Source of the DNA: Burkholderiales bacterium
Lineage (GTDB): Bacteria > Pseudomonadota > Gammaproteobacteria > Burkholderiales > SG8-41
NCBI GenBank assembly: GCA_035524795.1
Contig: DATKOF010000007.1
Location: 19,732 to 83,731, forward strand
DNA length: 64,000 bases
Direction: 5' to 3'
Positions 8,084 to 58,827 of the stretch are shown in pieces. Numbering within the stretch: position 1 is the first letter of the stretch; every line of letters begins with the position of its first letter. The notes under the pieces were generated by a model that did no database searches, was not told where the DNA came from, and was given only the letters and a program-made list of their open reading frames with translations. Made by a program: the position numbers and the translations under genes.

Positions 8084-10291
8084 TCAGCGCCTTGACGCGC
8101 GCGCGACGCCCGACACGCCGCGTATCAATACCAACAGTCTTCGCAGTTGATCAAGGTCGTTGATTTCGACCGTCAGCGTGATCCGCGCTGCCGCGTCGCG
8201 GCTTGTGCTGCGGGTCGCCACGACATTGACCCGCTCGCGCAGCAGTGATTCGGTGACATCGCGCAACAGCCCGGGGCGGTTGGCCGCTTCGATTTCGACA
8301 TCGACCGGAAACACCCTGTCTGCGCCCATATTGGCGCCCCAGTCCGCCGCGATCAGCCGTTCCGTCGCCAGCCGCGCGGCGTTGTGGCAGTTGGCGCGGT
8401 GAATCGTCACGCCGCGGCCGCGCGTGATGAAACCCACGATCGGATCGGGCGGCGCCGGTTTGCAGCATTTGGCGGGCACCGTCAGCAGCTTGTCCACGCC
8501 GACGATCAGAATGCCGCCTGGCTGCGCGCGCGACATTCTGACCGGCGGCTGCTCATCGACCGGTGCCGCGCCGTCGCCCCGGAATTCCGCAAGCAACCGG
8601 GCCGGGCCGATCCGGCCGCGTCCGACTTCGGCCAGGAAATCATCAAGCTTTTCGAAGTCGAACCGCCGCGCCAGTGCGTCCAGCCTGACATCGGTCATGC
8701 CGTGCCGCTGCAGTTCCCTTTCGAGGATCTCGCGGCCCTGCGCCGCGGCCGCCTCGTGATGCTGGCGGTTGAACCACTGCCGGATCCTGGCGCGCGCGCT
8801 GCCGCTGCGCACGAAGCCGAGCGCGGGATTGAGCCAGTCGCGGCTCGGCCCGCCCTGCCTGGCGGCAAGAATTTCGACCTGCTGGCCGTTGCTGAGCGGC
8901 GTATTGAGCGGAACAATCACACCGTCCACCTTGGCGCCGCGACAACGGTGCCCAAGGCCGCTGTGCACATGGTATGCAAAATCGATCGGCGTCGCGCCGC
9001 GCGGCAAATCGATGACTTTGCCTTGTGGCGTCAGCACGTAAATCGTGTCGGCAAACAATTCGCTTTTGAATTGCGCCGCGAATTCCCCGCTGTCGGCGAT
9101 CTCGTCCTTCCATTCGATGACCTGCCGCAGCCACGCGATCTTTTCGTGATAACCGGCATCGCCGCGCGCGCCGCCCTGCGCCCCTTCCTTGTAATGCCAG
9201 TGCGCGGCGATGCCGAGTTCGGCGTCGCGGTGCATTTCGAAAGTGCGGATCTGCACCTCGACCGGCTTGCCCTCGGGGCCGATCACCGCGGTGTGCAGCG
9301 AGCGGTAATGGTTGCTCTTCGGCTTCGCGATATAGTCGTCGAACTCTTTCGCCAGCGGCGGCCACAGGCCATGCGCAATGCCAAGCACCGCATAGCAGTC
9401 CTTGATATCGTCGACCAGCACGCGTACTGCGCGTACATCGTAGAGCGCGTCGAAATCGACACTCTTGCGCCGCATCTTGCTGTAGATGCTGTAGATATGC
9501 TTCGGCCGTCCGCTGACCTCGGCCCTGATACCGGAGCTTTCGAGCTCGTGCCGCAGCGCAAGAATGACCCGCTCGATGTAGCGTTCGCGGTCGTCGCGCG
9601 TGCCGTCGAGGCGGGACGCAATGTCCCTGTAGACATCCGGCTCCAGCACGCGCAGCGCAAAATCCTCGAGTTCCCATTTCAGTTGCCAGACACCCAGCCG
9701 GTTGGCCAGCGGCGCGAAGATATCGAGCGCAAGACGCGCCGCGTCGCGCCGGGACTGGACGTCGTCGGATCTGACGATGAAGCGCATCGTCTGCACGTGA
9801 TCGGCAAGCTTGATCAGAACGACGCGCACGTCCTCGGCCATCGCCAGCAGCATCTTGCGCAGACTCTCGAGCTGCGTCCGATGTTCGCCGCCGGTGTGCA
9901 CCGCGCGGCCGCCCAGAGCTTCGATCAGGGCCATGCGCGCCACACCGTCCGCCAGCGCGGCGATGCGCTCGCCGAACAGGCTGCGCATCGTGGCCAGCGC
10001 GTCGTGCCGGTCGGCCGACAGCGCAACCACCGGCGCCAGCAGCGCCGCGGCGGCACATTCGGCATCGAGACCGAGCCCGCGTAAAATCGCGGTGGTGCCC
10101 TCTGCGTGCACAAGCAGCGGCTCGCCGCCGGCGACCGTACGTCCGTCGAGATACGGCGATGCCCATTGGCGCGCGCGCGCGACCAGGCCGGCATTCGCCG
10201 GCGAACCATCACCCACGGACGTCGGCCAGCTTTCGGCCACGGCGTCCGCAGCCGTCGCGGTGACCAATCGGAGACGGATATTACGCACCAT
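8084..10291 (-). CDS. relA: RelA/SpoT-family (p)ppGpp synthetase (GTP pyrophosphokinase)
   Basis: 735 aa with a degenerate HD region, a RelA_SpoT synthetase core (RPKHIYSIYSKMRRK, YRSLHTAV), TGS (TPQGKVIDLPRGATPIDFAYHVHS) and a C-terminal ACT-like domain. Confidence 0.9.
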   Translation of the reverse strand: MVRNIRLRLVTATAADAVAESWPTSVGDGSPANAGLVARARQWASPYLDGRTVAGGEPLLVHAEGTTAILRGLGLDAECAAAALLAPVVALSADRHDALATMRSLFGERIAALADGVARMALIEALGGRAVHTGGEHRTQLESLRKMLLAMAEDVRVVLIKLADHVQTMRFIVRSDDVQSRRDAARLALDIFAPLANRLGVWQLKWELEDFALRVLEPDVYRDIASRLDGTRDDRERYIERVILALRHELESSGIRAEVSGRPKHIYSIYSKMRRKSVDFDALYDVRAVRVLVDDIKDCYAVLGIAHGLWPPLAKEFDDYIAKPKSNHYRSLHTAVIGPEGKPVEVQIRTFEMHRDAELGIAAHWHYKEGAQGGARGDAGYHEKIAWLRQVIEWKDEIADSGEFAAQFKSELFADTIYVLTPQGKVIDLPRGATPIDFAYHVHSGLGHRCRGAKVDGVIVPLNTPLSNGQQVEILAARQGGPSRDWLNPALGFVRSGSARARIRQWFNRQHHEAAAAQGREILERELQRHGMTDVRLDALARRFDFEKLDDFLAEVGRGRIGPARLLAEFRGDGAAPVDEQPPVRMSRAQPGGILIVGVDKLLTVPAKCCKPAPPDPIVGFITRGRGVTIHRANCHNAARLATERLIAADWGANMGADRVFPVDVEIEAANRPGLLRDVTESLLRERVNVVATRSTSRDAAARITLTVEINDLDQLRRLLVLIRGVSGVARASRR

Positions 10292-10469
10292 GATGAACTA
10301 CCATATATAAAGCGATTCCCGGGAAATGCAACCGGCCTGCCGGTTAGTCGGGATCAGGCGCAGCAAGGTTCACTACGTGCTACCGGAACAGTTTGGCAGA
10401 CCAATTGAACGCAAAATTTTCCTTATTGCACCATAATCATGCGCATCATGTCCCGAATCCTGCTTTTGG

Positions 10470-10508
10470 TGCATTCCGATGCCCGTATCGAGCGGGCATC
10501 GGAATGCA
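10470..10508. repeat. Perfect 16-bp inverted repeat (hairpin or operator candidate) in the relA / ATP-grasp divergent intergenic region
   Basis: The arms are TGCATTCCGATGCCCG (10470-10485) and CGGGCATCGGAATGCA (10493-10508), separated by the 7-nt spacer TATCGAG. Confidence 0.6.
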
Positions 10509-10619
10509 ATTTGACGCGTCATGCATCGTCCGCTTTGCCGGGCGCCGGAACGGTTGCGGCTATCGGGCACGGCCATTGCTTCATGATAGAAATAAAGATT
10601 CGGCTGGATTAACACGAAC

Positions 10620-12056
10620 ATGTTGGCCGCAGTGAGACCCGCCAGCGCCCGTTGCTACGACGAAATGTACGATGCCGCCGGCATCCCGTACGCGCATTAT
10701 GGCGCCTATGCCGAATGGCTTTCCGGCAAGCCGCGCGATTTCATGCTGCAGAAGCAAAGGGAAGCCGACACGCTTTACGCGCGGCTCGGCATCACGTTCG
10801 CGGTCTACGGCGACGAGGGCGGCGTCGAGCGCTCGATCCCGTTCGACATCATCCCGCGCATCATGCCGGCCGCGACGTGGAAAAAAATTTCCGACGGCTG
10901 CTGCCAGCGCGTGCGCGCGCTGAACGCGTTTCTCAGCGACATCTATCATCGGCAGGAAATCGTCCGGGCGGGCATCGTTCCCGAACGGCAAATCCTCGGC
11001 AACAGCCTGTTCCGCCGCGAAATGCAGGGTGTCGATGTGCCGGGCGGCGTCTACGTGCATGTCGCAGGCGTCGACATCGTGATGGTGGACGCTGAAACCT
11101 TCTACGTGCTCGAAGACAATCTGCGCACGCCGTCCGGCGTTTCATACATGCTGGAAAACCGCAGGATGATGATGCGCCTGTTCCCCGACCTGTTCGCCCG
11201 CATCGCGGTCGCGCCGGTGGATCACTATGCCGATGTCCTGCTCGACAACCTGCGCGCGGTCGCGCCGACCGGCAGCGCCGATCCGGTGGTCGTTGTGCTG
11301 ACGCCGGGTTCCTATAACTCCGCCTACTTCGAGCACGCGTTCCTCGCGCAGCAGATGGGCGTCGAACTGGTCGAGGGACAGGATCTGTTCGTTTCCGACG
11401 ATACGGTGTTCATGCGCACCACGCATGGCCCGAAACGGGTCGACGTCATCTACCGGCGCATCGATGACGATTTTCTCGATCCGCTGGCGTTCCGCCGCGA
11501 TTCGATACTCGGCGTGCCCGGCCTGTTCGCCGCCTATCGCGCCGGCCATGTGACGCTGGCCAACGCGATCGGCACCGGCGTCGCCGACGACAAGTCCACT
11601 TATACCTACGCGCCGGAAATGATCCGTTTCTATCTCGGCGAGGAACCGATCCTGCAGAACGTGCCGACCTGGCAGCTCGGCAGGCCCGATGACCTCAAAT
11701 ACGTGCTCGACCATCTGCCGGAACTTGTGGTCAAGGAAGTGCAGGGTTCCGGCGGCTACGGCATGCTGGTCGGCCCCGCCGCCGGGAAGTCTGAAATCAG
11801 GGCCTACCGCGAGCGCATCCTGGAACATTCCGCCAACTTCATCGCCCAGCCGACGCTCGCGCTTTCAACCTGCCCGACGTTCGTGCAGTCGGGAATCGCG
11901 CCGCGCCACGTCGACCTGCGTCCGTACGTGCTATCGGGAAAATCGGTGACGCTGGTGCCGGGCGCGCTGACGCGCGTTGCGCTGCGCGAAGGCTCGCTGG
12001 TCGTCAATTCGTCGCAGGGCGGCGGCACCAAGGACACCTGGATCCTCGAATCCTGA
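10620..12056 (+). CDS. Circularly permuted type-2 ATP-grasp protein (DUF404/DUF407 family)
   Basis: 478 aa. The N-terminus ...YDEMYDAAGIPYAHYGAYAEWL and the length and architecture are typical of the cpATP-grasp proteins that accompany alpha-E, transglutaminase and Anbu genes. Confidence 0.8.
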   Translation: MLAAVRPASARCYDEMYDAAGIPYAHYGAYAEWLSGKPRDFMLQKQREADTLYARLGITFAVYGDEGGVERSIPFDIIPRIMPAATWKKISDGCCQRVRALNAFLSDIYHRQEIVRAGIVPERQILGNSLFRREMQGVDVPGGVYVHVAGVDIVMVDAETFYVLEDNLRTPSGVSYMLENRRMMMRLFPDLFARIAVAPVDHYADVLLDNLRAVAPTGSADPVVVVLTPGSYNSAYFEHAFLAQQMGVELVEGQDLFVSDDTVFMRTTHGPKRVDVIYRRIDDDFLDPLAFRRDSILGVPGLFAAYRAGHVTLANAIGTGVADDKSTYTYAPEMIRFYLGEEPILQNVPTWQLGRPDDLKYVLDHLPELVVKEVQGSGGYGMLVGPAAGKSEIRAYRERILEHSANFIAQPTLALSTCPTFVQSGIAPRHVDLRPYVLSGKSVTLVPGALTRVALREGSLVVNSSQGGGTKDTWILES

Positions 12057-12061
12057 TGTCC

Positions 12062-12089
12062 CCTCAATCCTCAATCCTCGATCCCCGAT
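12062..12089. repeat. Four tandem heptamers CCTCAAT-CCTCAAT-CCTCGAT-CCCCGAT in the ATP-grasp/alpha-E spacer
   Basis: Read directly. Degenerate copies (TCCTCGA, TCCTGAT) extend upstream into the 3' end of the ATP-grasp gene. Confidence 0.7.
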
Positions 12090-12096
12090 CCTTGTC

Positions 12097-13083
12097 ATGC
12101 TGAGTCGCGCCGCCAACAACCTGTACTGGATGTCACGCCAGATCGAGCGCGCCGAGAATGCGGCGCGCATGCTCGATGTGACCTACCGCATGTCGCTGCT
12201 GCCGTACCGCGTGCTCGAGCCCGGGCAGGAATGGGCCGAACCATGGGCGCTGCCGCTCGTCATCACCGGACTGGCCAGCGCCTATTACGAGCGCTATCCG
12301 GGCCGGATCACGCCCGACAACGTGCTGCGCTTCATGGTGCTCGACCCGGCCAATTCCTCCAGCATCTGTTCGTGCATCCAGGCGGCGCGCGAAAATGCGC
12401 GCAGCATGCGCGGCGCAATCACCGAGGAAATGTACGAAGACCTCAACGATTTCTGGCTGAAGATGCGCGAGTTCGACCGCCATCGCGTCGAGGCCGACGT
12501 CGGCGGGTTTTTCGGCTGGGTCAAGATTCGCTCGCACCAGTTCCGCGGCGTCACGTTCGGCACCATGCTGCGCGACGAGAGCTACCACTTCATCCGCCTC
12601 GGCACGTTCATGGAGCGCGCCGACAACACCGCGCGCATCCTCGACGTCAAATACCATACGTTGCTGCCGAGCGTCGCCGACGTCGGCGGCGCCGTCGATT
12701 ATTACCAGTGGGGCGCATTGCTGCGCTCGGTCAGCGCCTTCGATTCCTATCGCAAAATCTATCACGACGTGATCACGCCGATGCGGGTCGCCGAACTGCT
12801 GATCCTGCGTGCCGACGTGCCACGCTCACTGCACGCCTGCATGAACGAAATCTACGAAATCCTGCAGGAGCTGTGCGATGACACCCAGCGCGAGGCCGAA
12901 CGGCTGGCCGGCGAACTGCACGCGAAACTGCACTACGGACAGACGCAGCAGATCATTCAGATCGGACTCCACGAATATCTGACCGGTTTTCTCGACGGCA
13001 CCAGCCGGTTGACCGATGAAATCGACAAAACCTTCCTGGTTCCGGTCTATCCGTCCCATCTGGCACAGACCGTCGCCGCATGA
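12097..13083 (+). CDS. Alpha-E domain protein (DUF403 family)
   Basis: 328 aa from the ATG at 12097 (MLSRAANNLYWMSRQIERAEN..., the characteristic alpha-E N-terminus). The 40-codon upstream extension in the track overlaps the ATP-grasp gene. Confidence 0.8.
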   Translation: MLSRAANNLYWMSRQIERAENAARMLDVTYRMSLLPYRVLEPGQEWAEPWALPLVITGLASAYYERYPGRITPDNVLRFMVLDPANSSSICSCIQAARENARSMRGAITEEMYEDLNDFWLKMREFDRHRVEADVGGFFGWVKIRSHQFRGVTFGTMLRDESYHFIRLGTFMERADNTARILDVKYHTLLPSVADVGGAVDYYQWGALLRSVSAFDSYRKIYHDVITPMRVAELLILRADVPRSLHACMNEIYEILQELCDDTQREAERLAGELHAKLHYGQTQQIIQIGLHEYLTGFLDGTSRLTDEIDKTFLVPVYPSHLAQTVAA

Positions 13084-13164
13084 ACGTCCTGCCCTGCTGC
13101 AAAAAGCCGGCCGCGAACGATTAAAATAGGTGTTTTCAACAACCCCGTCCGGAGCATTGCCCGC

Positions 13165-13890
13165 ATGACGTATTGTGTCGGATTGATACTCGATGCAGGA
13201 ATGGTATTCGCGTCGGATTCGCGCACCAACGCCGGCGTCGATCAGGTCGCTTCGTTCCGCAAGATGCGCATCTTCGCCCAGGACGGCGAGCGCGTGATCG
13301 TGATCCTGAGTTCAGGCAATCTTTCCATCACTCAGAGCGCGATCAACCTGCTGGAACATCCTGCCGGCGACGGCGTCAAGACGCTGCTGAACTGCGCCTC
13401 GATGTTCGAGACCGCCGAACTCATCGGCCACGCGCTGCGCGAAGTGCGGCAGCGCGACGGGCCGCACATGGCGCAGAACAACATCGACGCCAGCGCCTCG
13501 TTCATTGTCGGCGGCCAGATCCGCGGCGAACCGCAGCGGCTGTTCAATATCTACAACGAGGGCAACTTCATCGAAGCGACGCCGGAGACGCCGTATTTCC
13601 AGATCGGCGAGAGCAAGTACGGCAAACCGGTGCTCGACCGCGTGATCAACCGCGCAACCGGCCTGCTCGACGCGGCGAAATGCGTGCTGGTTTCATTCGA
13701 TTCGACGATGCGCAGCAACATTTCGGTCGGGCTGCCGATCGATCTGATGATCTACCGCAACAACGAGCTGCGCATCGGCATCCAGCGCCGGATCATGAAG
13801 AGCGATCCCTACTTCGACATGATCCACACCCAGTGGGGCGAGGGACTGAAGCGCGTGTTCGCACAGCTGCCCAACCCGCAATGGGACTGA
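13165..13890 (+). CDS. Anbu-type proteasome-like Ntn hydrolase (peptidase T1 family, COG3484-like)
   Basis: 241 aa beginning M-T-YCVGLILDAGMVFASDSRTN. The Thr directly follows the initiator Met, as expected for an N-terminal nucleophile without a propeptide. The gene sits in the canonical Anbu gene neighbourhood. Confidence 0.8.
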   Translation: MTYCVGLILDAGMVFASDSRTNAGVDQVASFRKMRIFAQDGERVIVILSSGNLSITQSAINLLEHPAGDGVKTLLNCASMFETAELIGHALREVRQRDGPHMAQNNIDASASFIVGGQIRGEPQRLFNIYNEGNFIEATPETPYFQIGESKYGKPVLDRVINRATGLLDAAKCVLVSFDSTMRSNISVGLPIDLMIYRNNELRIGIQRRIMKSDPYFDMIHTQWGEGLKRVFAQLPNPQWD

Positions 13891-13909
13891 ACCGTCCGGG
13901 CCGCCGCGC

Positions 13910-16900
13910 GTGAGCATCCGCGTCGCTCTGCACCATCAGACCCGCTACCGCTACGACCGGCTGGTCGCGCTGTCGCCGCAGGAGGTCCGTCTGCGGCCGG
14001 CACCGCACTGCCGCACGCCGGTGCTCTCCTATTCGCTGACCGTCGAGCCGGAACGGCATTTCATCAACTGGCAGCAGGATGCATTCGGCAACTACATCGC
14101 GCGCTTCGTGTTCCCCGAAAAAACGCGCGAACTCGATATCACGGTCGATCTGGTCGCCGACATGACGGTGATCAATCCGTTCGACTTTTTCATCGACAGC
14201 AGCGCCGAGAAATTCCCGTTCTCGTACGATGATCGGCAGCGCGGCAACCTCGCGCCGTTTCTCGCCGTGGAGGAACCGGGGCCGCTGTTCGCGCGCTGGC
14301 TGGCCGACTTCCGCGCCGCGCATAGCGGCGCGATCAACACGGTGGACTATCTGGTCGCGATCAACCGGCGCCTGCAGCAGGATATCCGCTATCTGGTGCG
14401 GATGGAGCCCGGCGTGCAAGGCTGTGAACAGACCCTCGCGCTCGGCAGCGGCTCGTGCCGCGACAGCGGCTGGTTGCTGGTGCAACTGCTGCGCCATTGC
14501 GGACTCGCCGCGCGCTTCGTCTCCGGCTATCTGATCCAGCTCGCCGCCGATCTCAAGCCGCTCGACGGCCCGGCCGGTCCTGAACGCGACTTCACCGATC
14601 TTCACGCCTGGGCCGAAGCCTACATTCCAGGCGCGGGCTGGATCGGGCTCGATCCGACCTCGGGGCTGCTCGCCGGCGAAGGCCACCTGCCGCTCGCCTG
14701 CACCGCGGCGCCCGCCGACGCGGCGCCGATCACCGGCCACACCGAACCGTGCCAGTCGCAATTCGATTTCGCGATGCAGATCACGCGCGTTCACGAAGAC
14801 CCGCGCGTGACCAGACCCTATTCCGGCGAACAGTGGCAGTCGATCGACGCGCTCGGTCGCCAGGTCGACGCCGAACTCAAGGCCAGCGACGTGCGGCTGA
14901 CACAGGGCGGCGAACCGACTTTCATTTCCGCCGACGACATGGACGGCGAGGAATGGAATTTCACCGCGCTGTCGCCGGCCAAGCGGGCGCTCGCCGAAAA
15001 TTTGCAGCGCCGTTTGCAGGCACGCTTCGCACCGGGCGGAATGCTGCATTTCGGTCAGGGCAAATGGTATCCGGGCGAAGCCGCGCCGCGCTGGGCGCTC
15101 GGCATCCACTGGCGCAAGGACGGCAAGCCAATATGGAATGATGCCGCGCTGTTCGCTGCCGGAGAAGACAGCGGCCATGGCACGACGGAAGCAAAGCGGT
15201 TGATCGAGGCGATCGCCGGCCGGCTTGGTTTGTCCGCACAATTCATAATCCCGGCCTTCGAGGATGCCTGGCAGGCGCTGGACCAGGAAAGCCGGCTGCC
15301 GCCCAATATTGACCCGCTCAACGCCGACCTCGACAACGACGTCGAGCACGCGCGGCTGGCGGCGCAGTTGCGGCAAGGGCTCAACCAACCGGCCGGCTTC
15401 GTGCTGCCGCTGCGCGCCGCAACCGCGAACGACAAATCCGGCGCGCGCTGGGAAAGCAGCCGCTGGCCGCTGCGGCGCAGGCATCTGTTCCTGCTCGCCA
15501 GCAGTCTGTCGATCGGCTACCGCCTGCCGCTCGACAGCCTGCCGGCGACCGAAGAGCGCGACGACGACCTGCCGCGCGATCCGTTCGAACCGGTCGAAGC
15601 GCTCGACGACGCCGACATCGCGCTCGCGGCTGCGCGCACCCGACGCAAACCCAAGGCCGACCCCAAGCCGCGCGAAGTGGTGCGCACCGCGCTGTGTGTG
15701 CAGGCGCGCGACGGCTGCCTTTACGTCTTTCTGCCGCCGCTTCCGCTGCTCGAAGATTACCTGGCGCTGGTGGCGACCGTCGAAACGGCTGCCGCCGATC
15801 TGCGGCTGCCGCTGCATCTCGAAGGCTACGAGCCGCCGCTTGACGCGCGCATCAGCACGCTCAAAATCACGCCCGATCCCGGCGTGATCGAGGTCAACAT
15901 CCATCCGGCGGCGGACTGGGACGGACTCGCCTCGAACATAACGGCGCTCTACGAGGAAACGCGCGCGGCCCGGCTGAGCGCCGAGAAATTCATGCTCGAC
16001 GGCCGCCACACCGGCACCGGCGGCGGCAATCACGTGACGCTCGGTGGCGCGACGCCCGCCGACAGCCCGCTGCTGCGCCGGCCCGACCTGCTCAAGAGTA
16101 TGATCACCTACTGGCAGAACCATCCCGCACTGTCCTACCTGTTTGCGGGATTATTCATCGGCCCGACCAGCCAGGCGCCGCGCATCGATGAAGCGCGCGA
16201 CGACAATCTGTACGAACTCGAAATCGCTTTCCAGCAACTGATGCAGCAGCATCTCACGGGCGAAGAATCGCCGAAACCGTGGCTGGTCGACCGCCTGCTG
16301 CGCAATCTGCTGGTCGATCTGACCGGCAACACCCACCGCACCGAATTCTGTATCGACAAGCTTTATTCGCCCGAGGGTTCGTATGGCCGGCTCGGTCTGC
16401 TGGAGTTCCGGGCATTTGAAATGCCGCCGCATCCGCGGATGAGCCTGGTGCAGATGCTGCTGCTGCGCGCGCTGACCGCGCGTTTCTGGAAAACGCCGTA
16501 TGCAGGCCGGCTGGTGCGCTGGGGCACGCAGTTGCACGACCGCTTCATGCTGCCCCATTTCGTTGTTGCCGACATGCAGGACGTGGTGCGCGACCTGCAG
16601 GCGGCGGGTTACGCGTTTGACTTCGCATGGTTTGCGCCGTTCATCGAATTCCGCTTTCCGCGCTTCGGCACGGTCGTCTATGACAATATCCGGATCGAAC
16701 TGCGGCAGGCAATCGAACCGTGGCACGTGCTCGGCGAGGAAGTCGCCTCCGGCGCCACTGCGCGCTATGTCGATTCGTCGGTCGAGCGCGTGCAGGTCAA
16801 GGTCAGCGGCATGACCGGCGCGCGCCACGTCGTCACCTGCAACCATCGCGCGCTGCCGCTGTGCGCGACCGGCGTGCCCGGCGAATTCGTCGCCGGCGTG

Positions 16901-17197
16901 CGCTACCGCGCCTGGCACCCGCCGTCGGCGCTGCATCCGACGATCGGCGTGCACACGCCGCTGGTCTTCGACATCGTTGACACCTGGAGCAACCGCTCGA
17001 TCGGCGGCTGCACCTATCACGTCGCCCATCCGGGCGGGCGCAACTACGAAACCCTGCCGGTCAACGCCAACGAGGCCGAAGCGCGGCGACTGGCGCGCTT
17101 CTGGGATCACGGTCACACGCCGGGACCGATGGCGGTCGCGCCTGAACCCGTCAATCCGGATTTCCCGCTGACGCTGGATTTGCGCTGGTCTGCGTAA
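13910..17197 (+). CDS. Large transglutaminase-family protein (N-terminal Bact_transglu_N and transglutaminase core, long DUF2126-like C-terminal region)
   Basis: 1095 aa with a GTG start. Candidate catalytic residues are visible: Cys in GSGSCRDSGW, His in DLHAWAEAY and Asp in GLDPTSG. Confidence 0.8.
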   Translation: MSIRVALHHQTRYRYDRLVALSPQEVRLRPAPHCRTPVLSYSLTVEPERHFINWQQDAFGNYIARFVFPEKTRELDITVDLVADMTVINPFDFFIDSSAEKFPFSYDDRQRGNLAPFLAVEEPGPLFARWLADFRAAHSGAINTVDYLVAINRRLQQDIRYLVRMEPGVQGCEQTLALGSGSCRDSGWLLVQLLRHCGLAARFVSGYLIQLAADLKPLDGPAGPERDFTDLHAWAEAYIPGAGWIGLDPTSGLLAGEGHLPLACTAAPADAAPITGHTEPCQSQFDFAMQITRVHEDPRVTRPYSGEQWQSIDALGRQVDAELKASDVRLTQGGEPTFISADDMDGEEWNFTALSPAKRALAENLQRRLQARFAPGGMLHFGQGKWYPGEAAPRWALGIHWRKDGKPIWNDAALFAAGEDSGHGTTEAKRLIEAIAGRLGLSAQFIIPAFEDAWQALDQESRLPPNIDPLNADLDNDVEHARLAAQLRQGLNQPAGFVLPLRAATANDKSGARWESSRWPLRRRHLFLLASSLSIGYRLPLDSLPATEERDDDLPRDPFEPVEALDDADIALAAARTRRKPKADPKPREVVRTALCVQARDGCLYVFLPPLPLLEDYLALVATVETAAADLRLPLHLEGYEPPLDARISTLKITPDPGVIEVNIHPAADWDGLASNITALYEETRAARLSAEKFMLDGRHTGTGGGNHVTLGGATPADSPLLRRPDLLKSMITYWQNHPALSYLFAGLFIGPTSQAPRIDEARDDNLYELEIAFQQLMQQHLTGEESPKPWLVDRLLRNLLVDLTGNTHRTEFCIDKLYSPEGSYGRLGLLEFRAFEMPPHPRMSLVQMLLLRALTARFWKTPYAGRLVRWGTQLHDRFMLPHFVVADMQDVVRDLQAAGYAFDFAWFAPFIEFRFPRFGTVVYDNIRIELRQAIEPWHVLGEEVASGATARYVDSSVERVQVKVSGMTGARHVVTCNHRALPLCATGVPGEFVAGVRYRAWHPPSALHPTIGVHTPLVFDIVDTWSNRSIGGCTYHVAHPGGRNYETLPVNANEAEARRLARFWDHGHTPGPMAVAPEPVNPDFPLTLDLRWSA

Positions 17198-17467
17198 AAC
17201 CGGCCGCAAGCGGACTGCACGGCCGGCCCCGGACTTAAACCATAAAATAAGGTATCGACAGCAACGCAATGATAAATATTTATTTTATGTTTCACTGAAA
17301 GGCTTCGCGACCAACAAACGGGTTCCTTGATCCAGCGCAGATGCAGCATCAAAAAATGTTGAATATGTCACGTCTGTGGAGAGATAATAAAAAAGTTACT
17401 AAGGCACTTGAAAAGATACCAAGGTAACCAAGTAACCCTGTTGGGGTGGGATGGGAGAGTGCACAGA

Positions 17468-17821
17468 ATGCACAGGCTTACAGTATTCGTCGCAACGATA
17501 TTGGCAGCAGCCGGCATCGCGATGGCGCCGTTTGCCGTTGCGCAAAGCGAGGCGTTGCCGGCCCCGTCTTCCCCCTCGCACAATCCAATCAAGCTCAAGC
17601 TCGAAGACTTCACCAATCCCCACAGCAGCGGCATCGTGCTTCCTCTCGACATCAACTACAGCCGCGAGACCCGCAACGTGGTAATGCCGCTGGATGCGCA
17701 GAAACTGTGGGGCGTCGGAGTCAATCTCGACATCGGCAACGCCAGGGACTTCAACACCAACAGCGGGCTCGGCGTCGAGCTGAAGAAAACCCCTGGCGTC
17801 GTCCTGCAGCGCAATTTCTGA
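17468..17821 (+). CDS. Hypothetical small secreted protein
   Basis: The internal ATG gives MHRLTVFVATILAAAGIAMAPFAVAQ, a signal peptide. No family was recognised. The region is lower in GC. Confidence 0.45.
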   Translation: MHRLTVFVATILAAAGIAMAPFAVAQSEALPAPSSPSHNPIKLKLEDFTNPHSSGIVLPLDINYSRETRNVVMPLDAQKLWGVGVNLDIGNARDFNTNSGLGVELKKTPGVVLQRNF

Positions 17822-17822
17822 T

Positions 17823-20243
17823 TCAGTCGGCTTCGGCGGCCACTGACGTCAGGTCGGGGGCTTCGAGCCAGTAACGCCGGTACGCATCGCGCCACGACCG
17901 CACAACCGGCCTGCCTGCCGCGATATCCACGATTACCGCGCCATCGCGGTCGGAACGATAGATCCGGCTGCCGGTCTGCGCATACCGTTGCACGACTTCC
18001 TCCTTCGGATGGCCGAAACGATTACGGTAGCCGACCGTGAAGACCACGACATGCGGATGCACCGTGGCGATGAACGCCGGCGTCGACGAAGTGCGGCTGC
18101 CGTGATGCGGCGCCACCAGCACGTCGGATGCGATCCGCGTTCCGTACTGTTCGAGAATTTCCCGTTCCGACTTCGCTTCGATATCCGCCGGCAGCAGCAG
18201 GGTTCCGCCCGGCGCAGCGATCTTCAGTACGCAGCCGCGATCGTTTTCCTTCAACTTCGGCAGGGCGTAATCGGCGCCGGACGGATGCAGCATTTCAAAA
18301 CGCACGCCGTCCCATTCCCATTGCTGCCCGGCCTGGCAACGCTCGAGATGCTGCGCCCCCGCCACCGCCGGAAAATCCGGTGGAACCGAAGTGAATACCA
18401 TCGCCACCGGCATCGCCTGCAGTACCGAAGCCGCGCCGCCGCTGTGGTCGTTGTCGCGATGGCTGACCACCATTGCATCGAGTGCGCGCACGCCGGTCGC
18501 GCGCAGAAACGGTGCGATGATGCGGTTGCCGCTGTCATAGCCCGGCCCGAAGCCGGGACCGGTATCGAAAAGCAGTGCATGCCGGCTGGTCTGCGCCGCC
18601 ACCGCCAGCCCCTGTCCGACGTCGAGCACGGTGATTTTCAGCGCGCCCTCCGGCAGTGACGGCGGCGCGGTCAGAAACAACGGCAGAAACCCGAACACTC
18701 CGATCCAGCGCGCCGGAAATCCGCGCGGCAGCAGCAACCACAGCGCACCGGCCATTGCAGCAACCACCGCCCACGCCGGCGGCGCATGCTGCTGCCACAC
18801 TGCGGCCGGCAAAGCGCTGAGCCAGCCGAGAAAAACGCCGCACCACGACATGATCAGGTGCGCGAGCTTCAGCACCAGGTCGAACGGCAGCAGCATGCCG
18901 ATCAAGGTCAGCGGCACCACCAGCAGGCTCACCACAGGAATCGCGACCGCATTCGCGAGCGGCGACACGATCGACACCTGCTGGAACAGCGCAATCGTCA
19001 GCGGCACCAGTCCGACCGTGATCGCCCACTGCACGCGCAGCCACGCCGCCGTCCAGTTGGGCTGCGCGATGCGTCCCGTGGACACATAAAAGATCAGCGC
19101 AACCGCGCCGAACGACAGCCAGAAACCGGCGGCATTGACCGCCCACGGGTCGATCACCAGCACCGCGAACAGCGCCGCTGCCAGAACCACCGATGCCGGA
19201 ACGACGGCGCCCGACCACAGCGCGAAGGCGATTACCGCGATCATGTATACGGTGCGCTGCGCCGGCACTTCGAATCCCGCGAGCAGCGCATAGAGCGCGG
19301 CCGCGGCAAGGCCGGCGGCGGCCGCGGCTTTCTGGGCCGGCAGCCGCAGTACGAGCCACTCGCTGCGGCGCCACAGCAGCGACACCAGCGCGAATATCAG
19401 CCCTGAAATCATCGTCACGTGCAGGCCAGAGATCGACATCAGATGATTGACGCCGGTGCGTGTGAACACCTGCCACTGCGGCGACAGTATCGCGCGCTGG
19501 TCGCCGATCGCCAGCGCGGCCAGTACGCCCGCGTACTCGTTGCCAGCGCCCGCGTACGGTGCGCCGGGCAGCGCAGCGAGAATGCGCTGGCGCAGCGTTT
19601 CGCGCGCATATTCGATCAAATACGCGGGGCGTGCGACGAGACCGGCAATGCGCGCATGCTCCTCCTTTTCGCGCACGTAGCCGGTGGCGCGGACGCCGCG
19701 TTCCAGCAGCCACGCTTCGTAATCGAAACCGTTCGGATTCAGCGTGCCATGCGGGCGGCGCAGCCGCACCGTGAAGCGCCAGCGTTCGCCGGCATGCAAC
19801 GACGGCAGTTCGCCCGCCGCATCGCCGTGCGCGCTGCTCCACCATGACAGCGCAATATGCGCAGGCACCCGTGCCTGCGGCGTCAGCACCTGCTCGACAT
19901 CGAAATCGAAGCGCATGCTGCGCTCGTACGGCTGCGGCAGACTGGCGACCACACCGACCACCGCGATATCGCGCCCTTCCCACGCCGCCGGCAACTCATC
20001 GGCGAGCCGCTCCTGCGCGCGCCACGCCGCCCAGCCGAAACCGCAGACCGCGGCCAGCAGGCACAGCGCCAGCCGCCGCGACACACGCAGGGCAACCGGC
20101 AGCGAAACCGCACGCGGCCGCAGCAGGGCAAGCGCCGCGAAAACCGCCGGCGCGAGCAGCCAGTACCAGCCGAGCGCCGGCAACTGCGCCTGCTGCTGCA
20201 GCCACCACACTCCCAGCGCGAAAGCGATGACATTGAGCCGCAT
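17823..20243 (-). CDS. comEC: DNA internalization competence protein ComEC/Rec2
   Basis: 806 aa with a polytopic membrane core and a C-terminal metallo-beta-lactamase domain (VSHRDNDHSGG). Confidence 0.88.
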   Translation of the reverse strand: MRLNVIAFALGVWWLQQQAQLPALGWYWLLAPAVFAALALLRPRAVSLPVALRVSRRLALCLLAAVCGFGWAAWRAQERLADELPAAWEGRDIAVVGVVASLPQPYERSMRFDFDVEQVLTPQARVPAHIALSWWSSAHGDAAGELPSLHAGERWRFTVRLRRPHGTLNPNGFDYEAWLLERGVRATGYVREKEEHARIAGLVARPAYLIEYARETLRQRILAALPGAPYAGAGNEYAGVLAALAIGDQRAILSPQWQVFTRTGVNHLMSISGLHVTMISGLIFALVSLLWRRSEWLVLRLPAQKAAAAAGLAAAALYALLAGFEVPAQRTVYMIAVIAFALWSGAVVPASVVLAAALFAVLVIDPWAVNAAGFWLSFGAVALIFYVSTGRIAQPNWTAAWLRVQWAITVGLVPLTIALFQQVSIVSPLANAVAIPVVSLLVVPLTLIGMLLPFDLVLKLAHLIMSWCGVFLGWLSALPAAVWQQHAPPAWAVVAAMAGALWLLLPRGFPARWIGVFGFLPLFLTAPPSLPEGALKITVLDVGQGLAVAAQTSRHALLFDTGPGFGPGYDSGNRIIAPFLRATGVRALDAMVVSHRDNDHSGGAASVLQAMPVAMVFTSVPPDFPAVAGAQHLERCQAGQQWEWDGVRFEMLHPSGADYALPKLKENDRGCVLKIAAPGGTLLLPADIEAKSEREILEQYGTRIASDVLVAPHHGSRTSSTPAFIATVHPHVVVFTVGYRNRFGHPKEEVVQRYAQTGSRIYRSDRDGAVIVDIAAGRPVVRSWRDAYRRYWLEAPDLTSVAAEAD

Positions 20244-22719: not shown

Positions 22720-23751
22720 TCAGCCTGCCGCCAGCTCTGGCTGGTAATCCTTGCCGCTTGTCATCATCGCCCAGGCGATGCGTGCGGTCTTGTTGGCCAT
22801 GGCCACTGCCGCAATGTTCGGGTGGCGGCGTGTCGCAATGCGGGTGCCCCACTGGCTTAACCGGTCATCCTTGGTCTTGGCGGTTCGAATCATGGCGCGG
22901 GCGCCGTGAACCAATAACGATCGTACATAGGCATCGCCGCGCTTGCTGATGCCTAACAGGCGGTCTTTGCCTCCTGAGCTCACTTGCTTCGGCGTCAGGC
23001 CGAGGGACGCCGCCATCTGCCGGCCGTTGGCAAACGGATGGGCATCGCCGACACTCGCCAGCAAAGCCGTGGCAATCATCGGCCCCACGCCGCGCAGTTG
23101 CTGCAGACGCTTGGCCATCGGATCGGATGCCGCAATCAGTGCCACCTCCTGATCCAGCTCTGTCACCCGATCATTCAGCTGCTGCAGATCCTGCCACAAG
23201 CCGGCAAGAAGCCTGCGAAACCGGCTGCTCAAGCCGTTCTCCGCATCTTCCAGCCAGCAGGGGATAGCTTGGCGCAAGTGCAACCATTCTTTAGGAGCGA
23301 CGATGCCATATTCCGCTGCCAGACCCCGCACCTGATTGGCCTTGGCCTTGCGCTGATCCATCAGGGCGGCGCGCACCCGATGCAGGGCCTGAATATCCTG
23401 CTGTTCGACTGTCTTCACCGGCACAAACCGCATGTGCGGCCGGCTCATCGCCTCACAAATCGCTTCTGCATCGTTGGCGTCGTTCTTGTTGCTCTTCACA
23501 TAGGGCTTCACAAACCGTGGAGCCATCAGCCTTACCGTAAAGCCTTTGGCCTGCAGCTGGCGCGCCCAATGGTGCGCACCCCCACAGGCTTCCATTCCGA
23601 TCTCGCAGTCAGGCTCGATCTTCTCCAGCAATACCCTCAGCCATTCCGCCCGATTGAGCTTCCGCCGCCACACCGGCTTCTCGTTGCAATCCACCCCATG
23701 CACTTGAAACACGTTCTTGGCCAAATCTACTCCAACGCGGATAATCTTCAT
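22720..23751 (-). CDS. IS110-family transposase (DEDD/RuvC-like N-terminal domain, C-terminal Transposase_20 domain)
   Basis: 343 aa. MKIIRVGVDLAKNVFQVHGVD...MEACGGAHHWARQL...NDANDAEAICEA shows the typical IS110 N-terminal motifs. AAGGAG lies 7 nt upstream of the ATG. Confidence 0.9.
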   Translation of the reverse strand: MKIIRVGVDLAKNVFQVHGVDCNEKPVWRRKLNRAEWLRVLLEKIEPDCEIGMEACGGAHHWARQLQAKGFTVRLMAPRFVKPYVKSNKNDANDAEAICEAMSRPHMRFVPVKTVEQQDIQALHRVRAALMDQRKAKANQVRGLAAEYGIVAPKEWLHLRQAIPCWLEDAENGLSSRFRRLLAGLWQDLQQLNDRVTELDQEVALIAASDPMAKRLQQLRGVGPMIATALLASVGDAHPFANGRQMAASLGLTPKQVSSGGKDRLLGISKRGDAYVRSLLVHGARAMIRTAKTKDDRLSQWGTRIATRRHPNIAAVAMANKTARIAWAMMTSGKDYQPELAAG

Positions 23752-29536: not shown

Positions 29537-31230
29537 CGCTCAACATCAAGGTCCGCGTGCCGCCCGCCGCCGCCGTCGCCGCGCTGACCGATGGCGGCGT
29601 TGATCCGCTGCTTGCGCGCATATACGCCGCGCGCGGCATCGTCTCGCCGCAACAGCTGGCAACCGGCACCGGCGGCCTGCTGCCGCCGGAGCGCATGCAC
29701 AACCTCGAACGGATGGCGGCGCTGCTCGCCGACGCGATCGCAGCCGGAAAAAAACTGCTGATCGTCGCCGATTACGACGCCGACGGCGCGACCGCATGTG
29801 CGGTCGGCATCCGCGCACTGCGCGCGTTCGGCGCGCGCGTCGATTATCTGGTGCCGAACCGCTTCGAGTACGGTTACGGTCTGACGCCGGAGATTGTCGA
29901 GCTCGCGCACCGCGAAAAGAATCCTGATCTGCTGATCACGGTGGACAACGGCATCGCCAGCGTCGACGGTGTCGCCACCGCCAACCGGCTCGGCATGCGC
30001 GTGCTGGTCACCGACCATCATCTGCCCGGCGCGCAGCTGCCGGATGCGCTGTGCATCATCAACCCGAATCAGGCCGGTTGCGGCTTTCCGAGCAAAAATC
30101 TGGCCGGCGTCGGCGTGATGTTCTACCTGATGCTTGCACTGCGCGCGGAACTGAGAAAACGCGGCGCGTTCGACGGGAAAACGGGACCCAATCTGAGCGC
30201 ACTGCTAGACCTGGTTGCGCTCGGCACCGTCGCCGATGTCGTCAAACTCGACGACAACAACCGGATCCTCGTGCAGCAGGGCCTGCAGCGGATGCGCGCC
30301 GGCAGGACCTGGCCCGGCATCGCGGCGCTGATGAAAGTCGCGGGCCGCGATCCGGCGAAAACTTCGACCTACGATCTCGGCTTCGTACTCGGTCCGCGGC
30401 TTAACGCCGCCGGCCGCCTCGAAGACATGGCGCTCGGCATCGAGTGCCTGATCACCGACGACGTGGCGACCGCCGAGCGCTGCGCGAGCGAGCTCGACCG
30501 CATCAATCGCGAACGGCGTTTGATCGAGAACGACATGCATGCCGACGCGCTGGCGGTTCTCGGACAGTTGCCGCAGACCGACAGCTACAGCCTGAGCCTG
30601 TTCGACGCCGGCTGGCATCCGGGAGTGATCGGCATCCTCGCTTCGCGCATCCGCGAGCGGCTGCACCGGCCGGTGATCGCGTTCGCGCCGGGCAGCAACG
30701 GCGAGATCAAGGGTTCCGGCCGCTCGATTCCGGCGCTGCACCTGCGCGACGCGCTCGACCTCGTCGCCAAGCGCGATCCCGGTCTGCTGCTCAAATTCGG
30801 CGGTCACGCGGCGGCGGCCGGACTGACGCTGCGTGCCGGCGACTTCGAACGCTTCCGCGACGCGTTCGAGGCGGCCGCGTGCGAACTGCTGTCGCCGGCC
30901 GACCTCGAGCGCGTGATCGAAACCGACGGCGCACTCGCGCCGGAACTGATGACGCTGGAAAACGCGGCACTGCTCGAACGGGTGGTATGGGGCCAGGGTT
31001 TTCCGCCGCCGACGTTTGACGGCGAGTTCGTCGTCGTCCGCCAGCGCGTGGTCGGCGAGCGTCATATGAAGCTGCGCGTCGCGTGCGGCGGCCGCGAATT
31101 CGACGCGATGCTGTTTGCGCGCGCGGAACCGCTGCCGCCGCGCGTGCGCACGGTCTATCGCCTCGCCAGCAACGAGTACAATGGACAGCGCAGCGTGCAA
31201 TTGACGATCGAACAATGGGAAGCACTTTGA
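29533..31230 (+). CDS. recJ: Single-stranded-DNA-specific exonuclease RecJ
   Basis: 565 aa from the ATG at 29533. DHH motifs are present (IVADYDADGATA, LITVDNG, VTDHH) along with DHHA1 (GGHAAAAG). Confidence 0.92.
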   Translation: MTLNIKVRVPPAAAVAALTDGGVDPLLARIYAARGIVSPQQLATGTGGLLPPERMHNLERMAALLADAIAAGKKLLIVADYDADGATACAVGIRALRAFGARVDYLVPNRFEYGYGLTPEIVELAHREKNPDLLITVDNGIASVDGVATANRLGMRVLVTDHHLPGAQLPDALCIINPNQAGCGFPSKNLAGVGVMFYLMLALRAELRKRGAFDGKTGPNLSALLDLVALGTVADVVKLDDNNRILVQQGLQRMRAGRTWPGIAALMKVAGRDPAKTSTYDLGFVLGPRLNAAGRLEDMALGIECLITDDVATAERCASELDRINRERRLIENDMHADALAVLGQLPQTDSYSLSLFDAGWHPGVIGILASRIRERLHRPVIAFAPGSNGEIKGSGRSIPALHLRDALDLVAKRDPGLLLKFGGHAAAAGLTLRAGDFERFRDAFEAAACELLSPADLERVIETDGALAPELMTLENAALLERVVWGQGFPPPTFDGEFVVVRQRVVGERHMKLRVACGGREFDAMLFARAEPLPPRVRTVYRLASNEYNGQRSVQLTIEQWEAL

Positions 31231-57534: not shown

Positions 57535-58809
57535 TCAAGCGGCATCGCGTGCCAGGCGTATCCCGGAAAACTGCCAGCGTGCGGACGCCGGAAAGAAATT
57601 GCGGTAGGTCGCCCGGATATGGTCGCGCGGCGTCGCGCATGATCCGCCGCGCAGCACGTACTGGTTGACCATGAATTTGCCGTTGTATTCGCCGAGCGCA
57701 CCCGTCGCCGGGCGGAAGCCCGGATAAGGCGCGTAGCTTGATTGCGTCCACTCCCAAACGTCGCCGAACATCTGCGCCAGCCCCCTGCCGCGTGCCGGCA
57801 GCGGATGGAACAGGTTGTCGTCAGCGAAATTGCCGTCGAGCCGGCAGGTAACGGCGGCGCGCTCCCACTCCGCCTCGGTCGGCAGACGCGCCTGACGCCA
57901 GTGCGCGTAGGCATCGGCCTCGAAATACGACAGATGAACAACCGGGCGCCGCGGATCCAGCGGCGCGAGGCCGCCCAGCGTGAATTCATGCCAGCCGTCA
58001 CCGCCGTCGCGCCAGTAAAGCGGCGCTGAAATCTGCTGCGCCCGCACCCAATCCCACCCCTCGGACAGCCAGTGCGCCGGATCGCGGTAGCCGCCGGCCG
58101 CGATGAATTCGAGGTATTCGCCGTTGGTCGTCAGTCGTGACGCCAGCCGGTACGGCTGCAGATAATGCTTGTGCCTGGGCAACTCGTTGTCGAAGCAGAA
58201 CGCGCTGCCGCCGTGGCCGATTTCGACCACGCCGCCGGCGCAGTCCAGCCACCGGAGCGGGTCCGCCGCTGACGAAAACGCGGCCGGCGGCGCGCCGTAC
58301 GCCGGTTGCAGCGGATTCATCGACAGCAGGTGCTTGACGTCGGTCAGGATCAATTCCTGATGCTGCTGCTCGTGATGGATGCCGAGCATCGCCAGCGCCC
58401 GCAACTCCGCATCCTCGCCGCGCCGTTCCAGCAGCCGCTGCATGCGCTGGTCCGCGTCGCGGCGGTAGGCGTGGATTTCGGCGAGACCGGGCCGCGTCAG
58501 CAGGCCGCGCCGCGGACGCGGAAACTGTTCGCCGATGCTGTTGTAGTAGGAATTGAACAGCGCCTCGAACGCAGCGTGAAACGGCCGGAAGTCCGGCTCG
58601 TAGCGTTTGAGCAGGAAAGTCTCGAAAAACCAGGTGGTGTGCGCGAGATGCCATTTGACCGGGCTGGCGTCCGGCATCGACTGTGCGCCACAGTCCTCCT
58701 CCGACAGCGGCGCGGCAAGCTGCGCGCTGCGCGCCCGCGTCCGCAGGTAGCGCGCGCCGATCTCCTCCTGCTGCGCGCGCGCGGAAAACAGCGGCTCCGG
58801 ATTACTCAT
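57535..58809 (-). CDS. egtB: Ergothioneine biosynthesis sulfoxide synthase EgtB (DinB_2 plus FGE-sulfatase domains)
   Basis: 424 aa. HLAHTTWFFETF and HHEQQHQEL are the DinB-type metal ligands. The C-terminal FGE-like domain includes GDVWEWT and RGGS. Confidence 0.88.
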   Translation of the reverse strand: MSNPEPLFSARAQQEEIGARYLRTRARSAQLAAPLSEEDCGAQSMPDASPVKWHLAHTTWFFETFLLKRYEPDFRPFHAAFEALFNSYYNSIGEQFPRPRRGLLTRPGLAEIHAYRRDADQRMQRLLERRGEDAELRALAMLGIHHEQQHQELILTDVKHLLSMNPLQPAYGAPPAAFSSAADPLRWLDCAGGVVEIGHGGSAFCFDNELPRHKHYLQPYRLASRLTTNGEYLEFIAAGGYRDPAHWLSEGWDWVRAQQISAPLYWRDGGDGWHEFTLGGLAPLDPRRPVVHLSYFEADAYAHWRQARLPTEAEWERAAVTCRLDGNFADDNLFHPLPARGRGLAQMFGDVWEWTQSSYAPYPGFRPATGALGEYNGKFMVNQYVLRGGSCATPRDHIRATYRNFFPASARWQFSGIRLARDAA

Positions 58810-58827
58810 GCATCGCTCCGCGATCCG

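Follow-up and report, generated by a model that had tools for sequence, protein, structure and literature searches.

We analysed a 64-kb stretch of DNA (the window) from an uncultured Burkholderiales bacterium, with the focus on a gene cluster that contains Anbu, a bacterial proteasome homologue. Identical proteins, encoded in the same gene order, are found on soil-metagenome contigs. Four open reading frames (ORFs) run in one direction with intergenic gaps of 40, 81 and 19 nt, exactly at the coordinates proposed in the initial annotation of this DNA:

10620-12056, plus strand: circularly permuted (CP) ATP-grasp ligase, 478 aa
12097-13083, plus strand: Alpha-E protein, 328 aa
13165-13890, plus strand: Anbu, predicted Anbu-1 type N-terminal nucleophile (Ntn) hydrolase with a Thr nucleophile, 241 aa
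13910-17197, plus strand: fusion of a transglutaminase-like (TGase) part to a DUF2126 domain (TGase-DUF2126), 1095 aa

Here Anbu shares its strand with genes for a CP ATP-grasp protein (COG2308), an Alpha-E protein (COG2307) and a transglutaminase-like protein (COG1305), the gene combination of the Anbu operon (Valas & Bourne 2008). The locus is a new case of a cluster whose kind is known from thousands of bacteria and has been since 2008-2009, and it belongs to a widespread subtype. Its canonical examples, with all genes likewise on the same strand, are those of Pseudomonas aeruginosa (Anbu, PA1733), Pseudomonas putida (PP_2685-PP_2688) and Yersinia bercovieri (PMC3235984, PMC5666114, PMC6376114). 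The initial annotation had recognised a known Anbu neighbourhood without a known function, in agreement with the literature (PMC3235984, PMC5666114, PMC6376114, PMC8665760), which as late as 2021 still gave the function as unknown (PMC8665760). The four genes are likely to be expressed as a single transcript, judging from the sequence. A simple consensus scan found no sigma-70-like sites in the upstream intergenic region or in the operon gaps, and neither the terminator nor the sigma-70 scan rose above shuffled expectation.

The family assignments proposed for the ATP-grasp, Alpha-E and transglutaminase proteins held in Pfam profile searches; NCBIfam returned no match for three of the four operon proteins. 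The ATP-grasp ORF matches CP_ATPgrasp_2 (4e-165) and CP_ATPgrasp_1 (3e-158), both over the full length and with scores of 550 and 527 bits where the gathering thresholds are 32 and 23, and its residues 8-477 match the solved structure 3N6X, deposited as a "putative glutathionylspermidine synthase," at 1.6e-225. The ATP-grasp protein of Y. bercovieri releases phosphate from ATP (PMC6376114). The Alpha-E protein covers the full Pfam model PF04168 (positions 1-294, 1.6e-98, 330 bits), its translation carries two motifs of the type ER(A)(E/D)N..AR.LDV (IERAENAARMLDV and MERADNTARILDV), and no solved homologue of it was found. In one of the related loci described below, L085, the Alpha-E start abuts the ATP-grasp stop.

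The assignment of the third ORF to Anbu rests on structures: it has no Pfam match at E<=0.01, but it matches solved Anbu proteins over its full length, with 5LOY (1e-98), 5NYW (9e-79) and 5LOX (4e-73) ahead of 5NYJ and 5NYF (~1e-71), an overall range of 1e-98 to 1e-70, and every match extending from residue 1 or 2 to residues 235-241. The protein begins M-T-Y-C-V-G-L and has no propeptide; the codon of Thr2 lies at 13168-13170. The idea that removal of the initiator Met would expose a Thr nucleophile is upheld by this MTYCVG start and by the conservation of Thr2 in 80 of 81 relatives, alongside Asp18 and Lys33 (81/81 each); T2, D18 and K33 are all invariant in a set of 13 homologues. For Anbu proteins studied elsewhere, removal of the start Met was inferred from crystal structures and mass spectra (PMC5666114). 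When the S1-pocket positions are mapped by numbering offset, the window protein (T21, F31, S49, L53 and T56 in precursor numbering) shares three residues with P. aeruginosa Anbu, which has the amphiphilic Anbu-1 pocket T20, F30, T48, L52 and S55 (PMC5666114); the other two are Ser/Thr swaps and none is Arg. By these residues, the window protein is a predicted Anbu-1, without the basic pocket of Anbu-2. Anbu forms a large multi-subunit assembly (PMC5666114), an open split ring rather than a closed barrel (PMC8665760), and peptide-based proteasome inhibitors bind to the P. aeruginosa protein, whose S1 pocket is proteasome-like (PMC5666114).

The fourth gene sets this locus apart from the canonical operon, and its product divides as follows:

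13910-14743, plus strand: N-terminal third of the 1095-aa protein, with Bact_transglu_N at 13925-14158 and a transglutaminase-like core at 14336-14656
14456-14458, 14603-14605 and 14651-14653, plus strand: codons of the triad residues Cys183, His232 and Asp248
14744-17197, plus strand: DUF2126 domain, residues 279-1092, predicted glutamine synthetase (GS)-like carboxylate-amine ligase

Pfam places Bact_transglu_N at residues 6-83, Transglut_core at 143-249 (54 bits) and DUF2126 at 279-1092 (model positions 1-826, 1305 bits). The claimed Cys-His-Asp triad is borne out: the motifs GSGSCRDSGW, DLHAWAEAY and GLDPTSG are present in the translation, and Cys183, His232 and Asp248 are invariant in 29 homologues. 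The triad aligns with the small TGases of canonical Anbu operons, in which the Cys is kept in 19 of 21. The two canonical-operon small TGases that have lost it, in L041 (8820-9821, GGGTANDHAH) and L076 (8176-9930, GFGDARDLAH), may be inactive variants. Among solved structures, the TGase part matches a putative cysteine protease from Cytophaga hutchinsonii (3ISR, E 2e-12) and TgpA (6G49), both by fold and by profile search.

The initial annotation had described the fourth protein as a giant form with a C-terminal extension of about 800 aa. The extension is present, measures 815 residues and is a DUF2126 domain. A full-length AlphaFold2 model built from 29 close homologues was poor (predicted local distance difference test [pLDDT] 61) and gave PDB matches only for the TGase part, whereas a model restricted to DUF2126, for which a more diverse alignment was used, reached a pLDDT of 84.3 and a predicted template modeling score (pTM) of 0.87. 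In a Foldseek search with the latter, the top 50 PDB matches were all GS-like carboxylate-amine ligases, the best being YbdK/GCS2 (1TT4/1R8G, E 1e-3, probability 0.99), and others being GS, gamma-glutamylmethylamide synthetase (GmaS), 1-naphthylamine GS and the depupylase Dop (7OYH). Because this confident model matches only ligases of this type, albeit weakly, DUF2126 is probably a second ligase and not a plain extension. Four motifs that may belong to the active site (GGEPTF, IEVN, GGGNH and EFRAFE) do not vary within the clade of the window protein. The candidate ligase residues, mapped by eye onto the catalytic residues of GS, are E335, E661, H708, E832, R834 and E837; they too are invariant in this clade and are replaced in about 4-7 of 27 diverse or distant family members. 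The family comprises 6278 clusters at 50% identity. Two DUF2126 sub-fragments, searched against Pfam at E<=10, returned DUF2126 alone, and a literature search for "DUF2126" returned no paper. Some representatives of the family (such as P0254, P0262 and P0267) are forms of about 800 aa without a TGase domain.

To put this architecture into a broader perspective, we scanned one genome per species with an Anbu alignment, which gave 80 loci (numbered with the prefix L), and mapped the window proteins onto them by tblastn. The published "conserved order" is ATP-grasp, Alpha-E, transglutaminase, Anbu (PMC6376114), and the canonical TGase that precedes Anbu is small, roughly 270-300 aa; in the window, Anbu comes before the TGase, and the TGase is fused to DUF2126. 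The window order of ATP-grasp, Alpha-E, Anbu and TGase-DUF2126 is complete in 26 of the 80 loci, and 8 further loci have the large gene directly after Anbu, followed by a contig end or within a rearranged locus, while the literature order with the small TGase occurs in 15. The published order is therefore not universal. There are also other arrangements: L025 and L030 start with the TGase-DUF2126 gene, L008 and probably L040 have it between Alpha-E and Anbu, and in L024 (Nitrospiraceae) the ATP-grasp and Alpha-E genes are on the opposite strand. A neighbour-joining tree separates, with three clear exceptions, the Anbu proteins whose gene adjoins a large TGase-DUF2126 gene (one major clade) from those linked to a small TGase (the other); the former clade includes Casimicrobiaceae, Rhodocyclales, Gallionellaceae, Nitrosomonadales and Nitrospirota. 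Since the 26 complete and 8 partial loci share the architecture and their Anbu proteins form a clade, the large-TGase form is best described as an inherited subtype of the known operon and not a local novelty; the earlier view that a giant TGase following Anbu is specific to this locus does not hold, the feature being clade-wide.

In three loci, L049, L050 and L053 (about 14200-17900 in each), the TGase-DUF2126 gene is followed by a second, 35-37% identical CP ATP-grasp gene, and in L049 and L053 a small TGase is appended after it. These loci look like an Anbu operon joined to a separate module of DUF2126, a fused ATP-grasp-Alpha-E protein and a small TGase, represented by Mycobacterium tuberculosis Rv2566-Rv2569c. 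This module shares the TGase-DUF2126 family with the window; it has a paralogous CP ATP-grasp and a small TGase, whereas the TGase-DUF2126 gene of the window stands alone after Anbu, with no second ATP-grasp or small TGase elsewhere in the 64 kb.

Upstream of the ATP-grasp gene, three short elements stand out:

10565-10580, plus strand: sigma-54-type -24/-12 element, GGGCACGGCCATTGCT, 55 nt upstream of the ATP-grasp ATG
10464-10473, no strand assigned: conserved TTTTGGTGCA block, a perfect NtrC-type half site, about 95 nt upstream of the -24 element
10427-10445, no strand assigned: degenerate NtrC-type site, TGCACCATAATCATGCGCA, at about -156 from the predicted transcription start

Scored against the consensus TGGCAC-N5-TTGCT, the -24/-12 element is one of two sites in the window with the top score (10). 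The other (14496-14481, minus strand) lies inside the TGase-DUF2126 gene, so that the element at 10565-10580 is the only top-scoring site in an intergenic region that faces a gene; its -24 GG and -12 GC are correctly spaced, and it predicts a transcription start near 10592. Most loci carry an equivalent element, 23-72 nt ahead of the ATP-grasp gene. Of 55 loci, 38 have a match scoring >=9 in the 120 nt upstream of this gene, where their own background rate would predict about 0.7. NtrC-type sites with <=1 mismatch number 36 across the loci, against 2.3 expected; the consensus used, GCACC-N5-GGTGC, is the enterobacterial one, and the NtrC assignment of these sites is correspondingly tentative. 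Both kinds of signal are also present in loci of canonical order.

Between the window and three sister lineages (L084, L085 and L087), the spacer has diverged around a few conserved blocks, namely the -24/-12 element, TTTTGGTGCA and GCACYA...GCRC. The block GCACYAYWWTCAKGCRC, with 2 mismatches to the NtrC consensus, is conserved in L084, L085 and L087, and TTTTGGTGC is identical in the window and in all three, except that its final base is G and not A in L087, while the sequence around it diverges. The combination of sigma-54 and NtrC-type motifs fits control by nitrogen limitation, and from the conserved promoter and sites we propose that the operon would be switched on by nitrogen limitation, with NtrC as the presumed activator in this organism. 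Induction of this kind is known for homologous clusters only. No gene set of nitrogen-limited P. putida was up-regulated more than the Anbu operon (PMC3235984, note added in proof); with nitrate in place of ammonium, the log2 fold changes of PP_2685 and PP_2688 were 4.4 and 4.0 (PMC8050072, Table 2). In Burkholderia cenocepacia H111, a cluster of the same families with a large TGase (I35_5080-5083, BCAM1233-1236) is among the most strongly NtrC/sigma-54-dependent genes under nitrogen limitation (PMC5491218); it differs from the window in that no Anbu gene is listed and both a small and a large TGase are present.

These comparisons also bear on whether the four genes belong together at all. That they are unrelated and merely adjacent, and do not form one functional unit, is a view we consider extremely implausible: the families stay linked across loci of Betaproteobacteria, Gammaproteobacteria and Nitrospirota even after rearrangement, the Anbu subtree tracks the type of TGase, and a single conserved promoter-like element lies upstream.

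A different control had been suggested from the upstream neighbour of the operon, whose relevant features are:

8084-10291, minus strand: divergent upstream gene, RelA-type
10470-10485 / 10493-10508, no strand assigned: perfect 16-nt inverted repeat, TGCATTCCGATGCCCG / CGGGCATCGGAATGCA, with a 7-nt loop
10327-10342, minus strand: weak candidate sigma-54-like element, CGGCAGGCCGGTTGCA, 36 nt before the relA ATG

The initial annotation had taken the divergent arrangement with relA and the repeat in the shared control region as a hint of stress or stringent-response coupling; in the fuller form of this idea, the repeat would be the shared operator. Its observations are sound: the neighbour is of the RelA type (NF008124, 657 bits, versus 489 bits for SpoT), it is divergent, and the repeat is perfect. 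The repeat forms a hairpin of -35.5 kcal/mol (z = -6.5; none of 200 shuffled sequences folds as well), its left arm begins inside the conserved TTTTGGTGCA block, and it is centred some 100 nt ahead of the predicted sigma-54 start, in the usual zone for enhancer-binding proteins. It has no other copy in the window, which rules out a repeated element, it is followed by no T-run, and the control region has no Rfam family. Conservation, however, argues against the coupling. The repeat is absent from L004, L013, L021, L027, L084, L085 and L087, including lineages with 89-91% identical Anbu (L084 retains a 6-nt remnant, CATGCC...GGCATG), and for this reason cannot carry a conserved regulatory link; as a conserved operator it was rejected. 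It is real, beyond chance, lineage-specific and unexplained.

The second candidate, relA as a conserved neighbour, was rejected as well, in that relA adjoins the operon only in L013, L021, L027, L084, L085 and contigs of the same species. In the sister lineage L087/L088 (Anbu 89% identical), other genes intervene, and in the other loci of the large-TGase subtype with upstream sequence the neighbour differs from relA. In L006, L007, L012, L014, L016, L018, L019 and L038, a tRNA-like gene on the opposite strand takes the place of relA; in such Casimicrobiaceae-type loci, the tRNA-like sequence, judged by eye, lies about 200-300 nt upstream of the ATP-grasp gene. The weak element facing relA, of which about 0.04 would be expected by chance per intergenic region, has a similar counterpart in L085 and none in L084, L013, L021 or L027. 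It might speculatively be a real promoter giving NtrC-driven relA expression as in Escherichia coli, where relA is activated by NtrC/sigma-54 (PMC4066584), and on these two grounds a local link to relA via shared NtrC sites is conceivable, though weakly supported. As an explanation of the operon, stringent-response coupling through the repeat is very unlikely, the conserved signals being those of the sigma-54 and NtrC types. Neither the relA neighbourhood nor the palindrome should be taken as a functional clue.

Our preferred reading, to which we assign a probability of about 0.4, is that the operon serves protein or peptide turnover during nitrogen starvation, as a module that both forms and hydrolyses amide bonds. 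It builds on the observed domain identities, conserved catalytic residues, linkage and sigma-54/NtrC-type motifs. As a single sigma-54-driven transcription unit, the four genes would be induced under nitrogen limitation; the ATP-grasp ligase, working with Alpha-E as its obligate partner, and the GS-like DUF2126 domain as a second ligase would use ATP to form amide or isopeptide bonds on peptides or proteins. The fused Cys-His-Asp domain and Anbu, as a Thr1 hydrolase, would then cleave amide bonds, and the combined effect would be that proteins or peptides are marked, processed and degraded and their amino-acid nitrogen recycled. Within this scheme, that DUF2126 acts as a ligase, what the substrates are and in which sequence the steps follow are all inferred. 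We favour proteins or peptides as the targets for three reasons: Anbu resembles proteasomes in its pocket and is bound by proteasome inhibitors (PMC5666114), the operon would belong to a starvation regulon, and the pairing of a GS-like ligase with a proteasome homologue brings to mind PafA/Dop and the proteasome.

The logic would be analogous to that of Pup ligase, depupylase and proteasome. The Pup-proteasome system of Actinobacteria (PafA, Dop and the 20S particle) likewise combines a ligase of the GS-like carboxylate-amine fold with a Thr hydrolase of the proteasome family, and the mycobacterial system has a role in amino-acid recycling under nitrogen starvation. The likeness of its ligases to DUF2126 is marginal and at the level of the fold only. 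Unlike that system, the locus lacks a Pup-like tag gene, an AAA+ unfoldase (Mpa) and an alpha subunit, and Anbu is an open split ring (PMC8665760). With no tag ORF, no AAA+ gene and an open ring, the operon is not a member of the Pup-proteasome family and is at most analogous to it. A stronger version of the analogy, in which the large-TGase subtype would be a self-contained, Pup-like tag-and-degrade pathway of Proteobacteria and Nitrospirota, seems to us improbable. Under it, ATP-grasp and Alpha-E would build a non-ribosomal tag, such as an oligo-amino-acid chain, DUF2126 would attach the tag to proteins, the Cys-His-Asp domain would remove or trim it, and Anbu would degrade the marked proteins without an unfoldase.

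Several points weigh against a role in protein or peptide turnover. GS-like and GspS-like ligases act mostly on small molecules. DUF2126 resembles GS-like ligases in fold only marginally (E about 1e-3, TM <=0.36), and a sequence profile search of PDB sequences found no solved DUF2126 relative; the second ligase is therefore probable rather than demonstrated. No AAA+ unfoldase gene is linked to the operon or found in its neighbourhood, and no conserved small ORF that could encode a tag or precursor adjoins it in the upstream region, the gaps or the downstream region, beyond the same species. The NtrC-type sites of the window are themselves degenerate, comprising one site with 2 mismatches and one perfect half site. 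Lastly, standard proteasome substrates were not cleaved by any Anbu tested to date, nor did the operon proteins form detectable complexes with one another (PMC6376114, PMC5666114).

Much of this could be accommodated by the main rival, a small-molecule amide cycle, which we consider rather unlikely. In such a cycle, the two ligases would make, and the TGase-like domain and Anbu would hydrolyse, a low-molecular-weight amide, for instance a gamma-glutamyl- or peptidyl-amine conjugate, for nitrogen scavenging, storage or detoxification, much as in E. coli glutathionylspermidine synthetase/amidase (GspSA) or in gamma-glutamylation (PuuA/PuuD, GmaS). The cycle would explain the inactivity of Anbu as a peptidase in vitro, the absence of a tag gene and the small-molecule ligases (YbdK, GS, GmaS and 1-naphthylamine GS) that top the DUF2126 fold search. 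The name under which the ATP-grasp orthologue 3N6X was deposited points the same way, as do the dominance of nitrogen-compound scavenging in NtrC regulons (PMC5491218) and the fact that some Ntn hydrolases are non-peptide amidases (PMC6376114). The fusion of a Cys hydrolase to a ligase also mirrors GspSA, generally known as a thiol (Cys) amidase fused to an ATP-dependent amide ligase; the parts differ, however, in that GspSA joins an ATP-grasp-like ligase to a CHAP amidase, whereas the window fuses a TGase-like to a GS-like domain and encodes its ATP-grasp as a separate protein. On the other hand, a large multi-subunit Anbu with a proteasome-like S1 pocket that binds peptide-based proteasome inhibitors (PMC5666114) speaks against such a cycle, and no transporter or oxidoreductase is consistently linked in the surveyed loci, the flanks of which were not annotated systematically. 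The CP ATP-grasp paralogues Rv2411c and Rv2567 of M. tuberculosis also made no gamma-aminobutyrate (GABA)-trehalose, a very narrow result from a 2026 preprint that covers one reaction and one metabolite (bioRxiv 10.64898/2026.04.15.718621).

The presence of two ligase-type domains also agrees with the original comparative-genomics proposal of peptide biosynthesis, credited to Iyer et al. 2009 in PMC5666114 and PMC6376114. ATP-grasp/Alpha-E and DUF2126 would here assemble a non-ribosomal peptide or modify a ribosomal one, and the TGase-like peptidase and Anbu would mature the product. We regard this as quite unlikely, given that no conserved precursor-peptide ORF lies nearby, that no exporter or immunity genes were seen in the neighbourhood, and that a nitrogen-starvation regulon would be an odd place for a nitrogen-rich product. 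Fuchs et al. also judged it less likely after structural work (PMC5666114).

Elsewhere in the window, a hypothetical ORF (17408-17821, plus strand; called 17468-17821 in L001) lies between the operon and comEC, after an AT-rich stretch at 17250-17400. It has no Pfam or NCBIfam match, and ORFs of 99-119 aa occupy the equivalent position in L084, L085 and L087 and were not found in more distant loci. An IS110-family transposase gene (22720-23751, minus strand) sits in the patch of lowest G+C content of the window (0.545), within a dip at 20-24 kb. ARAGORN calls a 93-nt tRNA-Glu at 29790-29882 (plus strand) inside the recJ ORF, which is probably a false positive because Rfam does not report it at gathering score. 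The gene at 51661-54336 (minus strand) encodes an 891-aa Pat-type protein with CoA-binding, succinyl-CoA-ligase-like, ATP-grasp_5 and GNAT domains, the architecture of a protein lysine acetyltransferase. Finally, an EgtB-like gene (DinB_2 and FGE-sulfatase) and an adjacent EgtD-type histidine methyltransferase gene, together at 57535-59844 (minus strand), make up an ergothioneine-type biosynthesis pair.

The locus adds no new kind of system and is no more tractable than the existing model organisms, and its value lies in what it says about the family. Anbu operons are among the most widespread bacterial clusters with solved structures and no known substrate, and they bear on the origin of the proteasome. 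The family comes in two major architectures, one with the small-TGase order and one in which the TGase is fused to a probable second ligase. The sigma-54 and NtrC-type signature upstream is a conserved feature of the family that matches the scattered transcriptome reports, and it tells which condition to use.

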